Source of the DNA: an uncultured Candidatus Saccharibacteria bacterium
Lineage (GTDB): Bacteria > Patescibacteriota > Minisyncoccia > UBA6257 > JACOXY01
Assembly: GCA_964357615.1 (NCBI GenBank)
Contig: CAYHMC010000001.1
Coordinates: 66,602-130,601, forward strand
Direction: 5' to 3'
Length of the DNA: 64,000 nt
The position numbers and the translations under genes are program-made. Every line of letters begins with the position of its first letter. The stretch's first letter is position 1. Below, in pieces: positions 12,543-35,308 of this stretch. A model generated the notes under the pieces. That model was not told the DNA's origin. It did not search any database and saw nothing but the letters and a program-made list of their open reading frames with translations.

Positions 12543-13799
12543 ATGTTTGCAAATCTTAGAGTTCGATGGAAAGTTGTAATTGGAATTATAGTTGAAATTA
12601 TTTTATTAGTCGGAGTTGGTTTCGGCGGTTTTTATGTTGGAACACTTTTTGCATCTGTTCAGCCACATACCATTACATTGTCCATGAATAATGTAACTGG
12701 AACTTCTACCACACCGGACTTCAATACATTTTGGCAAGCATGGGAAATTGTTAAAAAAGATGCACTTCACGGCAAAAATTTAACTGATAAAGATTTATTA
12801 TACGGTGCAATTAGAGGAGTTGTTGGATCGCTCAAAGACCCACACACGGTATTTATGCCTCCATCTGATGCAAAAAAGTTTTCAGATGAGATAAGAGGTA
12901 GTTTTGGTGGCGTGGGAATGGAAATTGGAAAGCGTGAAGGCAGGTTGCTCGTTATTTCTCCACTTAAAGATTCTCCAGCAGAAAAGGCAGGGTTAATGGC
13001 CAATGACTATATCATAAAGATTGGTGATATTTTTACTGAAGCATTAGATGTTGAGCAAGCGGTAGATTTAATTCGAGGTCCAAAAGGCACTCCTGTAAAG
13101 CTTGAGTATGTAAGATCTGGCTGGACAGAGCCGAAACAAATTTCAATTATTAGAGATACTATTGTTGTTCCAACGATCGAATATGTAAAGCTAGACAATA
13201 ATATTGCCCATATTAAGCTGTATAATTTTAATGAGAAGGCTGCGGATGGAATAATGGATGCGCTTCGGAGTGCAGAAAAAGATGGAGCAGAGCGTATAAT
13301 TTTAGATTTAAGAAATAATCCAGGAGGCTTTCTTGAAATATCAGTTCGTATTGCTGGGCTTTGGTTGCCTGAGGGGATGGTAGTTGTAAGTGAGGAATTT
13401 AGAGACGAAAGTAGCAATGAGAAATTTACATCGCCAGGAAATGGTGCGTTAAAAAATATTCCAACTGTTATTTTGATAAACGGTGGCTCCGCATCTGCAT
13501 CAGAAATTTTGGCTGGGGCACTTCGAGATAATCTTGGAATAAAATTAATTGGCACAAAAACTTTTGGCAAGGGGACTGTTCAAATATTAAAACAACTCAC
13601 GGATGGCTCAAATGTAAAGGTGACTGTTGCAAATTGGCTTTTACCCAAAGGAGAAACAATTGAAGGAAATGGCATAAAGCCCGACATTGAAGTTAAAATA
13701 ACCGAAGAACAAATTAAAAAAGAAATAGACCCGCAACTGAAACGCGCAATAGAAGAAGTTAATAAAATAAAACCAAATTTAACTATTGAAAAAATTTAA
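12543..13799 (+). CDS. ctpA: C-terminal processing (tail-specific) peptidase, S41 family with a PDZ domain
   Basis: PDZ segment GGVGMEIG...SPAEKAGL. S41 core ILDLRNNPGGFL. Includes the GSASASEI segment. Confidence 0.9.
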   Translation: MFANLRVRWKVVIGIIVEIILLVGVGFGGFYVGTLFASVQPHTITLSMNNVTGTSTTPDFNTFWQAWEIVKKDALHGKNLTDKDLLYGAIRGVVGSLKDPHTVFMPPSDAKKFSDEIRGSFGGVGMEIGKREGRLLVISPLKDSPAEKAGLMANDYIIKIGDIFTEALDVEQAVDLIRGPKGTPVKLEYVRSGWTEPKQISIIRDTIVVPTIEYVKLDNNIAHIKLYNFNEKAADGIMDALRSAEKDGAERIILDLRNNPGGFLEISVRIAGLWLPEGMVVVSEEFRDESSNEKFTSPGNGALKNIPTVILINGGSASASEILAGALRDNLGIKLIGTKTFGKGTVQILKQLTDGSNVKVTVANWLLPKGETIEGNGIKPDIEVKITEEQIKKEIDPQLKRAIEEVNKIKPNLTIEKI

Positions 13800-27404: not shown

Positions 27405-27428
27405 GTTAGCTAAAATAAAAAACCGCCT
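27405..27428 (-). terminator. Hairpin CCCCGCCCC-taag-GCGGTT plus a U-run (minus sense)
   Basis: The plus strand reads aaaaaaccgccttaggggcgggg just past the stop of the 27428-27628 ORF. Confidence 0.6.
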
Positions 27429-27628
27429 TAGGGGCGGGGAAATCCATTCAGAAGAACGCGCTTCCAGCCAGCAAATCTTATTGCCAACTTGGAAATTTTT
27501 CTACGTTTTTTGTGTGGCTTAGATATGATCACAGGCACATCTTCTCCAATATTTGGAACAAAAATTATCGAGTTTCTTTTTTCGAATCCTCGTCGATTAA
27601 AGACTCTAATTCGTCGTCTAAGTCTCAT
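27428..27628 (-). CDS. Small basic hypothetical protein. Its ATG directly follows the in-frame TAA of the upstream ORF.
   Basis: 66-aa Arg/Lys-rich ORF. Confidence 0.3.
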   Translation of the reverse strand: MRLRRRIRVFNRRGFEKRNSIIFVPNIGEDVPVIISKPHKKRRKISKLAIRFAGWKRVLLNGFPRP

Positions 27629-27838
27629 TTATCTCGGCCTCATATCAATTCCATTTATTCGGTTTAATATTTCACTAGAGCAGATTGTTATTTTATGATT
27701 TGCAATATCAGAGACGGAAGATGCGCCGGCTTTTTTTGAAACTTGTACTAATTCAACTATAAGCTCATTATCATTAAACATTTTGATTCTAGTTTCATAT
27801 CCAACAAGCTGACTTAAAACAAACTCACTATCTTCCAT
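27629..27838 (-). CDS. Small hypothetical protein
   Basis: 69-aa ORF in the same frame as the 27428-27628 ORF, separated from it only by TAA. Confidence 0.3.
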   Translation of the reverse strand: MEDSEFVLSQLVGYETRIKMFNDNELIVELVQVSKKAGASSVSDIANHKITICSSEILNRINGIDMRPR

Positions 27839-27933
27839 TTTTATCTCGGCTCTTAAAAAACTAAATAAAACATTATCATATAATAGACCTTCTGCACAAT
27901 AAGGTTGTCGTGTAGAATATTTAAATTACAAAA

Positions 27934-27962
27934 ATAAAACTGCCAAATATGTGGCAGTTTAA
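27934..27962 (-). terminator. Hairpin AAACTGCCA-aatatg-TGGCAGTTT plus a U-run (minus sense)
   Basis: aaaactgccaaatatgtggcagttt after the 27972-28196 ORF. Confidence 0.55.
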
Positions 27963-27971
27963 GGTAAGTAG

Positions 27972-28196
27972 CTACCTTGTTTTTAGTCTATTAAAAAGTT
28001 GTTCTTTGCAAAATTTCAATTTAGTGTGAGAGAAATTTCTCGATGATTTTGCGAGTGCACTTTCCTTTGCAGATTTTACTAGTTCCTCAACCAATAATTC
28101 ATCTGGCAATTGGCGAATTTTGTATAAGATAAGACCGCGGTCGGCTTCGCGTGATACACAATTTTTTACTTTTGTCATTTCTCGGCTCACTTTCAA
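27972..28196 (-). CDS. Small hypothetical protein. The likely true start is the internal ATG (MTKVKN...), giving about 68 aa.
   Basis: ORF with its own terminator. No recognised family. Confidence 0.3.
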   Translation of the reverse strand: MKVSREMTKVKNCVSREADRGLILYKIRQLPDELLVEELVKSAKESALAKSSRNFSHTKLKFCKEQLFNRLKTR

Positions 28197-28289: not shown

Positions 28290-28697
28290 TGTAGGTTGGT
28301 TACGCGTAAGCCGGATTCTGTTATATAAACGATAAAGCTTATATGATAGCGATTTATCTGGGCTAAAGATTACTCCTTAGCTCTGGCGACTCCCCAAAAT
28401 GTAAAATATTTACACATGGTGCGGTCTTGCACTCTGTAAGGATTTAGCCGTTTCACTTCCGTTTTTTTGTCCTTATGGCGGAATTAGACCAACAAGCTTA
28501 GGATTGGGTCTCTTTAATTTTTTCAAATTAAAGCGTCACTGCTCGCACCTCTATTCTTACGAACGACGGCTGTTAGCCGCTACATTTTTTCACCTCGGCG
28601 GGTGCTTGCGCTCCGAAGCCTTGGCGAAGGAGTGTCCGGACTTTCCTCTCCCTTAATCTATTGATTTAGAGAGTAGCTATCTCAATAACCAACCTTC
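28290..28697 (-). ncRNA. rnpB: RNase P RNA (bacterial type A-like), about 405 nt
   Basis: Minus-strand read. The P4 5' strand GAGGAAAGUCCGGACAC lies at plus 28637-28653. The P4 3' strand ACAGAAUCCGGCUUA lies at plus 28307-28321. P1 pairs 5' AGGUUGGUUA (ending at 28696) with 3' UAACCAACCU (28293-28302). The region is GC-enriched. Its own TTGTCA-17-TATAAT promoter sits upstream. Confidence 0.85.
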
Positions 28698-28701
28698 TGA
28701 T

Positions 28702-28752
28702 ATTATACCATAATTCAATGAAATTGACAATATGATAAAAATAGTGTATAAT
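28702..28752. promoter_or_regulatory. Overlapping divergent consensus sigma70 promoters sharing the near-palindromic -35 TTGACAA. The minus-strand promoter is TTGTCA(28730-28725)-17-TATAAT(28707-28702) for rnpB. The plus-strand promoter is TTGACA(28724-28729)-17-TATAAT(28747-28752) for the GC-rich cassette.
   Basis: Read directly. Both spacers are exactly 17 nt and both -10 boxes are perfect TATAAT. The predicted rnpB transcription start coincides with the P1 5' end. Confidence 0.65.
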
Positions 28753-28796
28753 TATGGCAGTTATTCACCATCTGTTCTGGCTAAATGGAGGCTGTG

Positions 28797-29102
28797 ATGC
28801 CGACTGGACTTCGAACTAATACGAGCTTTGCAGGGCTTGTGGCAAACCTGAAGGAGAATTGTCACATCATACATCACACAGGTTCAAAGGAGGCTAAGGC
28901 ATATCTCGTGATTTCTTACGGGAAATACACCGTTTCAGTTGCTCCTCATGAGGGGGGGGTAATGTATGTAACTCCACATCATGTTTTGGAGGAAATACAC
29001 TCTGGGGCACTTCGCATAGCATATGCGGAAATTATCGCCGAGCATGCGAAGCTGTGGGGGGTTAGCTTCGACTTAGGTAATCCGAGGATACTTCCGGCAT
29101 AA
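28797..29102 (+). CDS. His-rich small protein of unknown family (101 aa from Met5; the track ORF starts at 28785). It lies in the GC-rich island.
   Basis: SD GGAGG (28787-28791) lies 5 nt before ATG 28797. Ten His residues (HIIHH, APHEGG, TPHHV, EEIHSG, AEHAKLW). Local GC is about 48% against a genome value of about 35%. Confidence 0.5.
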   Translation: MPTGLRTNTSFAGLVANLKENCHIIHHTGSKEAKAYLVISYGKYTVSVAPHEGGVMYVTPHHVLEEIHSGALRIAYAEIIAEHAKLWGVSFDLGNPRILPA

Positions 29103-29120
29103 GTGAGGGGAGGGTAAAAA

Positions 29121-29318
29121 ATGAAGCCAAGAAGTTTTGTTTCTCCGCGTGCTTGCTATCAAAAAAGTGAGCGGTGTACAGGCAAGATTACCATGTGTTT
29201 TAGGTTGCTCAGTGGCAAATGGCTAAGGCATCCTATGTGCTGGTTGCACACTTGCAAGACAAACAATAAGCAATGTATATCGCATTGCAGAACTTGCGGG
29301 AGTCATGAGACTTACTGA
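29121..29318 (+). CDS. Cationic Cys-rich small protein (65 aa, 8 Cys). Possible Zn-binding peptide.
   Basis: SD GGAGGG lies 6 nt before ATG 29121. Cys spacing is C-x6-C-x6-C-x13-C-x4-C-x6-C-x3-C-x2-C. A strong terminator follows. Confidence 0.4.
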   Translation: MKPRSFVSPRACYQKSERCTGKITMCFRLLSGKWLRHPMCWLHTCKTNNKQCISHCRTCGSHETY

Positions 29319-29323
29319 AAGTG

Positions 29324-29360
29324 ATCGGGTTTAGGTGAGAGTCCTAGGCCCGATTTTTTA
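29324..29360 (+). terminator. Strong rho-independent terminator. The 12-bp stem ATCGGGTTTAGG/CCTAGGCCCGAT is followed by TTTTTTATTT.
   Basis: Read directly. It closes the plus-strand GC-rich cassette. Confidence 0.7.
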
Positions 29361-29371
29361 TTTGGATTGAT

Positions 29372-32555: not shown

Positions 32556-32570
32556 TATTCATTGCAGAAA

Positions 32571-32800
32571 TTATGGAGTTGGTGTTGGCGATGGAGTTAC
32601 TGTCGGTGTCGGAGTTGGACTTGGTGTCGGAGTTGCTGTTGGAGATGGGCTGGGTGTCGGTGATGGGGTTGGTGTTGGTGTCGGAGTAGCTGATGGCGTT
32701 GGTGTTACTGCTGGAGTTGATGTCGGGGACGGAGTTGGCGTTACTGATGGCGTAGGAGTCACTGATGGCGTTGAAGTTGGGGATACAGTTGGTTTTGGAG
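32571..32800. repeat. Imperfect tandem DNA repeats (ggagttggtgttgg / gatggcgttgg units) encoding the PT-rich tail
   Basis: Visible periodicity in the sequence. Confidence 0.6.
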
Positions 32801-33449
32801 TTTCGTTAATTTTTTTCCAAATTCCAGGTGGTAGAACTTGGCACTCAGGGACTACCGGTTGGTCGCCATTTTTCTTTTTCCAGCCAGGTGCAACTAGGTG
32901 CCCAGGTGGGATTATCGCACATAATTTTTTACCCCTTGAAACTGACGGTGTTCCTTCCGTTGAAGTTGCATTATCTTCAAAATGAACTGGGTTTTTTCTT
33001 AGAAGTTCATTTAGTACTTTTAGAGTTTGAGGGCCGACTCTGCCAACTCCTGGTAGTCCATGTTTTTTCTGTAATCGCTTTATTGCTTCTTTTGTAAGAT
33101 TGCCGAAGTTCCCAGTTATTAATCCTTCTGGATAAATTTCAGAATCAGAAGCAAGCAAAGCCTGAATTATTAGAACATCTTCGTTTTTATCTCCAGGGTT
33201 TAGTTGCTTTTTAAGATCACTCACAACTTCTTTAAGTTCCGTATTGATTGTTTGTTGTTTTGTTTTTAATGCATTAATTTGTTCGTTTAATGTTTGCATT
33301 TGTTTCATTAGTGCGCTTATTTGGTCGAGAAGCGATTGGGTTCCGCTACTAACTGTACTTGTAGTTACTGCAAAGCCCTCTCCTGGCAAAACAGCGATTC
33401 CTAATCCGAGCACACTAATAATTAATGCTATGAAAATTGAATTACGCAT
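32571..33449 (-). CDS. Secreted protein with a coiled-coil segment, a peptidoglycan-binding (PG_binding_1-like) domain and a C-terminal Pro/Thr/Ser-rich repeat tail
   Basis: [38 protein letters not shown]. Tail [10 protein letters not shown]... Confidence 0.7.
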
Positions 33450-35092: not shown

Positions 35093-35308
35093 TCAGAATT
35101 TTGTACATTTTCGACAAAGTAAAAATGGAGCGCCCAACCAAGTCATGGTATCAACGCTGTGTTTATCTAGTTCTTCTCCACAACCACGGCAATGAGTTTT
35201 GTCATTTGGATGCTCATTCCTGCAAGAAAGTGGCACGCTAAATATTGACCTTGAATGTTTAGTGTCTTTTTTGCAAACACCACAATATTTAATCCGGTCT
35301 TCTGACAC
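35093..35308 (-). CDS. Small zinc-ribbon protein (three CxxC pairs)
   Basis: CGVCKK...CRGCGEEL...CRKCTKF. Confidence 0.5.
   Translation of the reverse strand: MSEDRIKYCGVCKKDTKHSRSIFSVPLSCRNEHPNDKTHCRGCGEELDKHSVDTMTWLGAPFLLCRKCTKF

Follow-up and report, generated by a model that had tools for sequence, protein, structure and literature searches.

A two-gene operon next to the RNase P RNA gene of groundwater Parcubacteria defines two previously undescribed families of small proteins

Several kinds of described systems come close, each in a different respect, to the locus considered here. Type II toxin-antitoxin (TA) operons also consist of two small, translationally coupled genes, the first coding for an acidic and the second for a basic product, behind a strong promoter. 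Back-to-back divergent promoters with overlapping -35 boxes offer a parallel of regulatory architecture, in which two near-consensus promoters face apart and five of the six bases of the -35 hexamer are common to both. Among small metal-binding proteins, the [4Fe-4S] ferredoxins of the Fer4 clan and the WhiB-like (Wbl) iron-sulfur (Fe-S) factors of Actinobacteria come to mind, the latter being marked by the Cys spacing C-x14-22-C-x2-C-x5-C and a G[VI]WGG turn, and the mini-GNAT proteins (e.g., AcrVA5 and YjdJ) together with the GNAT core were likewise among the closest known systems considered. The locus itself lies within a stretch of 64,000 nucleotides (the window) from contig CAYHMC010000001.1 (assembly GCA_964357615.1, positions 66,602 to 130,601 of the forward strand) of an uncultured bacterium of the Patescibacteriota, a Paceibacteria-type (Parcubacteria) organism of Hainich groundwater. 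An earlier examination of the letters alone (the sequence-only reading) had singled out a GC-rich segment beside rnpB, the gene for the RNase P RNA, as a cassette of two genes (ORF1 and ORF2, for open reading frame) with consensus expression signals. Orphan small proteins are common in genomes of the candidate phyla radiation (CPR), to which such organisms belong.

The segment is a single operon unit in which promoter, Shine-Dalgarno sequence, ORF1, a second Shine-Dalgarno sequence, ORF2 and terminator follow one another, and its products constitute two previously undescribed small-protein families, neither of which is placed in a known family by any tool. The view of it as a protein-coding cassette is upheld, as both frames are conserved in relatives and under purifying selection, and so is the impression that the proteins were of unrecognised families, with family searches giving no significant match for either. 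Both frames are open in all lineages, indels fall in frame, and the starts and Shine-Dalgarno sites are conserved. The closest pair of relatives, the loci designated L009 and L010, are 81% identical in DNA, and the ratio of nonsynonymous to synonymous substitution rates (dN/dS) between them is 0.08 in ORF1 and 0.24 in ORF2 as against ~1-3 in the other two frames; 38 of the 54 differences in ORF1 and 25 of the 45 in ORF2 occupy codon position 3, while the synonymous rate (dS) is near saturation even here (1.14 for ORF1, 0.60 for ORF2). Furthermore, the ORF1 frame far outscores the five alternative frames on host codon usage and displays the usual pattern of G-rich first and G-poor second codon positions. 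The conservation of the frames at the protein level, the dN/dS values and the codon evidence thus establish both ORFs as real genes and lead to the rejection of a structured RNA as the main explanation of the segment. Public gene calls of the source contig do not include ORF2, nor does a collection of 15 billion proteins; at L008, where ORF2 occupies 630-824, the gene caller picked a different, non-conserved frame at 718-864.

Both families are rare. With ORF1 as the query, a word-indexed search across 5.8 billion protein clusters returned nothing but ORF1 itself, whereas an exhaustive HMMER scan of 1.84 billion representative proteins recovered homologues of 94-110 amino acids (aa) with E-values of 1.6e-18, 8.8e-10, 8.3e-5 and 2e-4, to which a profile search added a fifth (P0126). 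The five show 35-45% identity over the full length. A Cys-rich homologue of ORF2 follows ORF1 at every sufficiently long locus (L008, L009, L010 and L014/15), with the window ORF2 recovering those of L008 and L009 by BLASTP at E-values of 2e-23 and 3e-12, respectively. Representative genomes of GTDB yielded nothing by either the ORF2 pattern or a clade-specific rnpB DNA pattern, metagenomes of JGI only the organism of the window itself and L010, collections of phages and plasmids no match to the cassette, and the literature on small Cys-rich proteins of Parcubacteria or Patescibacteria nothing relevant. A match in IMG/VR (L018, 4998-5114) was discarded: the viral contig has ~60% GC, and the ORF2 pattern occurs there by chance in a non-coding frame. 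The families are confined to a handful of related groundwater Parcubacteria, with six lineages known (the window, L008, L009, L010, L013 and L014/15).

The strong expression signals noted earlier were confirmed and extend across these relatives. The cassette promoter is the only one in the window that matches the consensus at all 12 positions, and a 12/12 match is kept in all six lineages, 32-51 nt ahead of the ORF1 start. Perfect promoters have been kept although synonymous sites are near saturation even in the closest pair, which argues for selection for maximal transcription, and expression of the operon would accordingly be expected, from its signals, to be very high. The proposed sharing of the -35 box with the divergent rnpB promoter takes the form of a 5-nt overlap (28724-28729 against 28730-28725), and an overlapping divergent TTGTCA-17-TATAAT is retained in each of the four lineages where rnpB directly abuts the cassette (the window, L008, L009 and L013). 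The two Shine-Dalgarno sequences stand exactly where they had been placed (Table 1). GGAGG or a close variant precedes ORF1 in five of the six lineages, and AAGGAG or AAGGAGG occupies the equivalent position ahead of ORF2 in L008, L009, L010 and L014. The ORF1 stop and the ORF2 start are separated by 18-19 nt in the window, L009 and L010; in L008, L013 and L014, the first 11-23 nt of ORF2 lie within the end of ORF1. A terminator with a T run is present as described, its stem comprising 13 pairs rather than 12, and hairpins with T runs also lie 3' of ORF2 in L008, L009 and L010.

Table 1. Features of the operon and of the adjoining rnpB gene in the window
Feature	Coordinates	Strand	Evidence or remark
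Cassette promoter TTGACA-17-TATAAT	28724-28752	+	12/12 consensus
Divergent rnpB promoter TTGTCA-17-TATAAT, TG extension	28702-28730	-	-35 box at 28730-28725
Putative 5' untranslated region	28759-28796	+	Transcription start inferred from the -10 position
Shine-Dalgarno sequence GGAGG	28787-28791	+	5 nt ahead of ORF1 ATG at 28797
ORF1, 101 aa (stop included), small α-β4-α protein	28797-29102	+	Homologues, alignment, dN/dS, model, codon usage
Shine-Dalgarno sequence GGAGGG	29109-29114	+	6 nt ahead of ORF2 ATG at 29121
ORF2, 65 aa (stop included), basic Cys/His-rich small protein	29121-29318	+	Homologues 3' of ORF1, BLASTP, dN/dS
Intrinsic terminator	29323-29362	+	13-pair stem at 29323-29355, 7-nt loop, then T run
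rnpB, bacterial type A RNase P RNA (context only, outside the operon)	28291-28693	-	RF00010, 87.7 bits, E 7.5e-27

The suggestion that the cassette was recently acquired is not supported by comparison with the relatives. It occupies the same site, between rnpB and a gene for a surface protein (641 aa in the window, 615-647 aa across relatives) that is followed by RsmE, and a check for an insertion beside rnpB found it there in five lineages, with identities that track those of the flanking gene. In L009 the entire order seen in the window recurs, i.e., ORF1-ORF2, a convergent gene for a 615-aa protein, RsmE, a 303-aa protein, GATase and Ddl, and L008 has the cassette and a 647-aa gene in common with the window. 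Identity of the 641-aa protein to its counterparts is 53% in L008 and 41% in L009; the corresponding values are 45% and 35-36% for ORF1 and 50% and 46% for ORF2. The divergence of the cassette is thus in step with that of its neighbours and therefore points to vertical inheritance rather than recent insertion. Homologues of RsmE are at most 54% identical to that of the window, and the loci anchored on RsmE (L004-L007) are not syntenic, having neither rnpB nor the cassette. In L010, a DDE (rve-type) transposase gene (357-1405) lies between the rnpB -10 box and the shared -35, with the 12/12 promoter kept, and in L014 (1-295) and L015 (1-270) another such gene ends 18 nt before the cassette -35. 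These transposases are insertions beside the cassette and not vehicles for it.

The compositional anomaly that first drew attention to the segment is real but slighter than described: 28724-29360 has 44.9% GC rather than about 48%, with 46.4% in the coding part and 48% in ORF1 alone, against 34.2% for the window. The comparison with host genes that had been proposed bears the anomaly out at third codon positions, where the two ORFs have the highest G+C content (GC3) of the 73 ORFs of the window, about 0.47-0.48 against 0.242 +/- 0.041; the gene for ribosomal protein L27 has a GC3 of 0.26. The excess recurs in every lineage (the window and L008-L015), with 0.33-0.56 in the cassette and 0.18-0.27 in neighbouring genes, and since it persists across lineages in a vertically inherited locus, recent transfer does not explain it. 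The synonymous shift is mainly from A to G, in that codons of the NNR type end in G in 48% of cases as against 21% in neighbours and four-fold degenerate sites are 23% G as against 10%; codons of the NNY type end in C in 39% as against 24%. G and T together make up 62-65% of third positions in the window cassette. In a heavily transcribed unit the exposed non-template strand undergoes A>G and C>T changes, a transcription-associated strand asymmetry, and a mutation bias of this kind would give G+T-rich third positions. The excess of G and C may reflect either selection on the mRNA or such a transcription-linked mutation bias. When synonymous codons were shuffled with protein and codon usage kept, the z-scores of the minimum free energy (MFE) in five lineages were -1.3, -0.8, -0.4, -2.4 and -1.7, which hint consistently, if weakly, at additional structure in the mRNA. 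Another island of the window that is GC-rich and G-skewed (32560-32800, - strand) was considered as an RNA or foreign element and discarded, being the C-terminal tail, rich in Pro, Thr and Ser, of a 292-aa ORF (32571-33449, - strand).

In the alignment of the six ORF1 sequences 13 positions are invariant and the hydrophobic pattern is clear, and an AlphaFold2 model built from them has the topology α1-β1-β2-β3-β4-α2 (predicted local distance difference test, pLDDT, 82.9; predicted template modelling score, pTM, 0.74). A Foldseek search of this model against PDB and BFVD returned nothing significant; the predicted fold is thus confident but has no significant structural match, and no known fold family is assigned to it. 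A fold like that of HicA or the double-stranded RNA-binding domain was considered and dropped, with no Pfam match and Foldseek values for the latter of E 1.3-1.9 and TM 0.22-0.26, as was a GNAT acetyltransferase, the combination of a complete GNAT fold, an acetyl-CoA-binding β4-α3 motif and a Pfam match not being found. The isoelectric point (pI) is 4.7-5.6 in the family and 7.1 in the window copy, i.e., acidic in five of the six lineages. The picture of ORF1 as a His-rich protein with a role in Ni or Zn binding is not supported: the window copy has 8 His rather than 10, none is invariant, and the homologues hold only 2-3.

A metal-binding role, as the sequence-only reading had proposed, is plausible for ORF2 rather than for ORF1. 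The spacing of its eight Cys residues, C-x6-C-x6-C-x13-C-x4-C-x6-C-x3-C-x2-C, is exactly as had been reported. Thirteen residues are invariant in all five sequences (M1, A11, C12, S16, C19, T20, G21, C26, W34, H37, C40, H43 and C45, or 12 besides the initiator Met), and C52, H55 and C56 are conserved wherever the sequence extends far enough. The conserved residues of ligand type are Cys 12, 19, 26, 40, 45, 52 and 56 and His 37, 43, 55 and 62, with three to four of the His kept, to which one position-shifting Cys is added. The proteins are 64-80 aa long across the lineages, with one in-frame insertion of 10 residues in L009 and L010, a pI of 9.3-9.75 and an N-terminal tail rich in Lys and Arg. 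L009 and L010 have the full C-x2-C-x2-C-x3-C spacing of classical ferredoxins, of which the L014 sequence, cut off by the end of its contig, shows the initial C-x2-C. Matches of the family to Fer4 and PsaC are not significant (E about 0.09-0.4; best Pfam E 0.086), and the window copy has none; a 4Fe-4S ferredoxin domain (Fer4) was accordingly rejected, the motif being absent from the window ORF2 and L008 and no Pfam score reaching the gathering threshold. This pattern of residues suggests that ORF2 may be compact, with Zn or Fe-S bound at two or three centres. The window has a further small Cys-rich ORF (35093-35308, - strand; 71 aa) with CxxC...CxxC pairs, which is zinc-ribbon-like and not obviously related to ORF2.

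Taken together, these observations make it probable, with considerable room for doubt, that the segment is a bicistronic operon, vertically inherited and peculiar to one small clade, that codes at high level for an acidic partner and a basic metalloprotein. The promoter would drive an mRNA of ~600 nt ending at the intrinsic terminator, and ribosomes loading at the consensus Shine-Dalgarno sequences would translate ORF1 and then ORF2, with coupling between the two suggested by the short spacer in three loci and the overlap in three others. ORF2 would fold around two or three tetrahedral metal centres, with either Zn or an Fe-S cluster, held by seven invariant Cys, three to four His and one further Cys whose position depends on the lineage. 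Its basic tail and net positive charge might mediate binding to nucleic acid or to the acidic ORF1, of complementary charge in the family, which would then be its stoichiometric partner. Since the two -35 boxes overlap, initiation at rnpB and at the operon may be competitive, a polymerase at one promoter excluding the other.

Several points weigh against this interpretation. Searches of Pfam, NCBIfam, PHROGs, PADLOC and PDB sequences yielded no function-bearing homology for ORF1 or ORF2, and the predictions of metal binding, complex formation and nucleic-acid binding draw only on sequence pattern, charge and the arrangement of the genes. The single-sequence structure model of ORF2 is unusable (pLDDT 52), its frame is without the usual codon-position composition (G+C of 0.31 at first positions, less than the 0.54 at second positions), and gene callers skipped it or took another frame. 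The ferredoxin-like motif is incomplete in the window ORF2 and in L008, where the second Cys is missing; both copies have an extra Cys 2-3 residues after C56, and the loss and the gain together fit a four-ligand site with one movable ligand. The power of comparison is low because only six lineages are known.

Other explanations of the segment differ in how much of this evidence they can accommodate. A structured non-coding RNA, such as an atypical transfer-messenger RNA (tmRNA) or a large non-coding RNA, in which the two ORFs are accidental, had been left standing by the sequence-only reading, and it would account for the raised GC in an AT-rich genome, as in the neighbouring rnpB, for the clean unit from promoter to terminator, for an MFE z-score of -2.6 against dinucleotide shuffles and for the mildly negative values (-0.4 to -2.4) in synonymous-codon shuffles of all five lineages. 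However, the Rfam cmscan that had been recommended, run both at the gathering score and, with filters relaxed, at E<=10, found no match on 28756-29362 (+ strand), ARAGORN found no tmRNA in the segment, and the conservation is that of proteins, with 35-50% identity, differences concentrated at third positions, the low dN/dS of both frames, in-frame indels and conserved Shine-Dalgarno sites and start codons; an RNA gene is therefore extremely unlikely. A recent horizontal insertion next to rnpB, bringing a foreign composition with it, is rather less improbable and still quite unlikely. It could draw on a GC3 of 0.46-0.48, more than 5 standard deviations above the host mean of 0.24, on the transposase genes directly upstream in L010 and L014/15 and on the extreme rarity of the family. 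Yet position and neighbours are the same in the window, L008, L009, L010 and L013, the divergence parallels that of the flanking gene, and the GC3 excess is found in every lineage despite near-saturated synonymous sites; moreover, the insertion sequence (IS) of L010 sits between rnpB and the cassette without carrying the latter, and the phage and plasmid collections hold no matches, with IMG/VR giving only the chance one.

Among the rivals that, like the favoured bicistronic operon, accept two proteins, a type II TA-like module with ORF1 as the acidic antitoxin and ORF2 as the basic toxin ranks highest and is itself unlikely: the two small adjacent or overlapping genes of opposite charge, the strong promoter and the IS elements sometimes found alongside are as one would expect of it, but Pfam, NCBIfam and PADLOC give no toxin, antitoxin or defence domain for the six family members, the family has a single syntenic locus instead of scattered multiple copies, and the ORF1 model is without a DNA-binding fold of the ribbon-helix-helix, helix-turn-helix or AbrB kind; a Cys7His4 mini-protein is also not a known toxin type. 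About as improbable as a recent insertion is that the proteins are lineage-specific cofactors or regulators of RNase P, or of tRNA or RNA processing more generally, under joint control with rnpB through the shared -35. The adjacency to rnpB in five lineages, the overlapping divergent promoters in four, the very basic nature of ORF2 and an rnpB in the window atypical enough to score below the Rfam gathering score would all fit with this. Nevertheless, neither protein shows similarity to RnpA, to the archaeal Pop5, Rpp21, Rpp29 or Rpp30 or to any RNA-binding domain, the RNA is of full length (403 nt) rather than minimal, and the proteins occur in a tiny clade only, similar rnpB genes being widespread; the IS of L010 parts rnpB from the shared -35 with neither gene lost, and adjacency in close relatives may be plain synteny. 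Were it true, a ribozyme RNA and its protein partners would be made in fixed balance, and there would be a bacterial case of additional RNase P-associated proteins beyond RnpA. The small size and Cys-richness of ORF2 and the CxxxCxxC stretch of the window copy would fit a ribosomally synthesized and post-translationally modified peptide (RiPP) precursor or secreted antimicrobial peptide, with ORF1 as its partner or immunity protein. This is very unlikely, as no modifying enzyme, transporter or signal or leader feature lies nearby: the conserved neighbourhood (rnpB, surface protein, RsmE, GATase and Ddl) is without radical-SAM, YcaO, lanthipeptide or transporter genes, neither a signal peptide nor a leader-cleavage motif is present in ORF2, conservation does not extend to the CxxxCxxC stretch, and the whole Cys/His core is conserved in the manner of a folded metalloprotein instead of a conserved leader with a variable core.

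The neighbouring rnpB matches RF00010 over its full length and yet lies below the gathering score of 100, because of which a default Rfam scan misses it and it is reported in E-value mode only. It was located, by its GAGGAAAGTCCGGAC box, on the upstream side of the cassette in the window, L008, L009, L010 and L013. In L009 (100-330, - strand) the distance of this box from the RNA 5' end is ~170 nt as against ~60 nt in the window, L008 and L013, which points to a large insertion close to helix P3. Three consecutive small ORFs (27428-28196, - strand; 66, 69 and 74 aa) with no Pfam match lie between rnpB and the RNase H gene; the contigs of the relatives end inside rnpB and so do not reach these ORFs. 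A search of the window for rpmH/rnpA motifs found none, a result that is uninformative for a 64-kb piece. Elsewhere in the window, a match to the Rickettsia small RNA (sRNA) family sRNA47 (13308-13617, - strand; 66.7 bits against a gathering score of 60) is antisense inside a 418-aa ORF (12543-13799, + strand) that looks like a C-terminal processing (S41-type) peptidase, and it probably reflects conservation of the protein-coding sequence and not an sRNA gene.

An ambiguous GC-rich island has thereby been settled as protein-coding, with the addition of ORF2, a gene missed by public calls, and of two families of which six lineages are known among >5 billion protein clusters. The strongest possible expression signals in the reduced genomes of the CPR suggest that the products are probably abundant and important to the cells. 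Two features deserve attention in their own right, namely the conserved sharing of a -35 box between a ribozyme gene and a protein operon, and the synonymous-site excess of G and C, which recurs from lineage to lineage against an AT-rich background. The analysis of the operon demonstrates no new mechanism; should ORF2 turn out to be a new mini-protein, with Fe-S or Zn, whose target is RNA or the transcription machinery, it would represent a regulator type new to Patescibacteria.

From the type II TA operons with which this account began, the locus differs in having no known toxin or antitoxin domain, a single syntenic locus and no predicted DNA-binding fold in ORF1. Its back-to-back promoters serve a ribozyme RNA gene on one side and, on the other, an operon of orphan proteins; they show no evident regulator site, and competition between the promoters is a proposal drawn from their overlap. 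Like the [4Fe-4S] ferredoxins of the Fer4 clan, ORF2 has CxxCxxCxxxC in L009 and L010 and a chain of 64-80 residues dominated by metal ligands, but it has neither a second ferredoxin motif nor a trailing Pro, and its four further Cys, with the C-x6-C-x6-C spacing, its conserved His and its basic tail are not ferredoxin features. With the Wbl factors the likeness is one of functional analogy only, both being small, basic, Cys-ligated proteins that could act on nucleic acid or the transcription machinery, whereas the Cys spacing and the turn of that family are absent from the ORF2 alignment, there is no Pfam match and the phylum is a different one.

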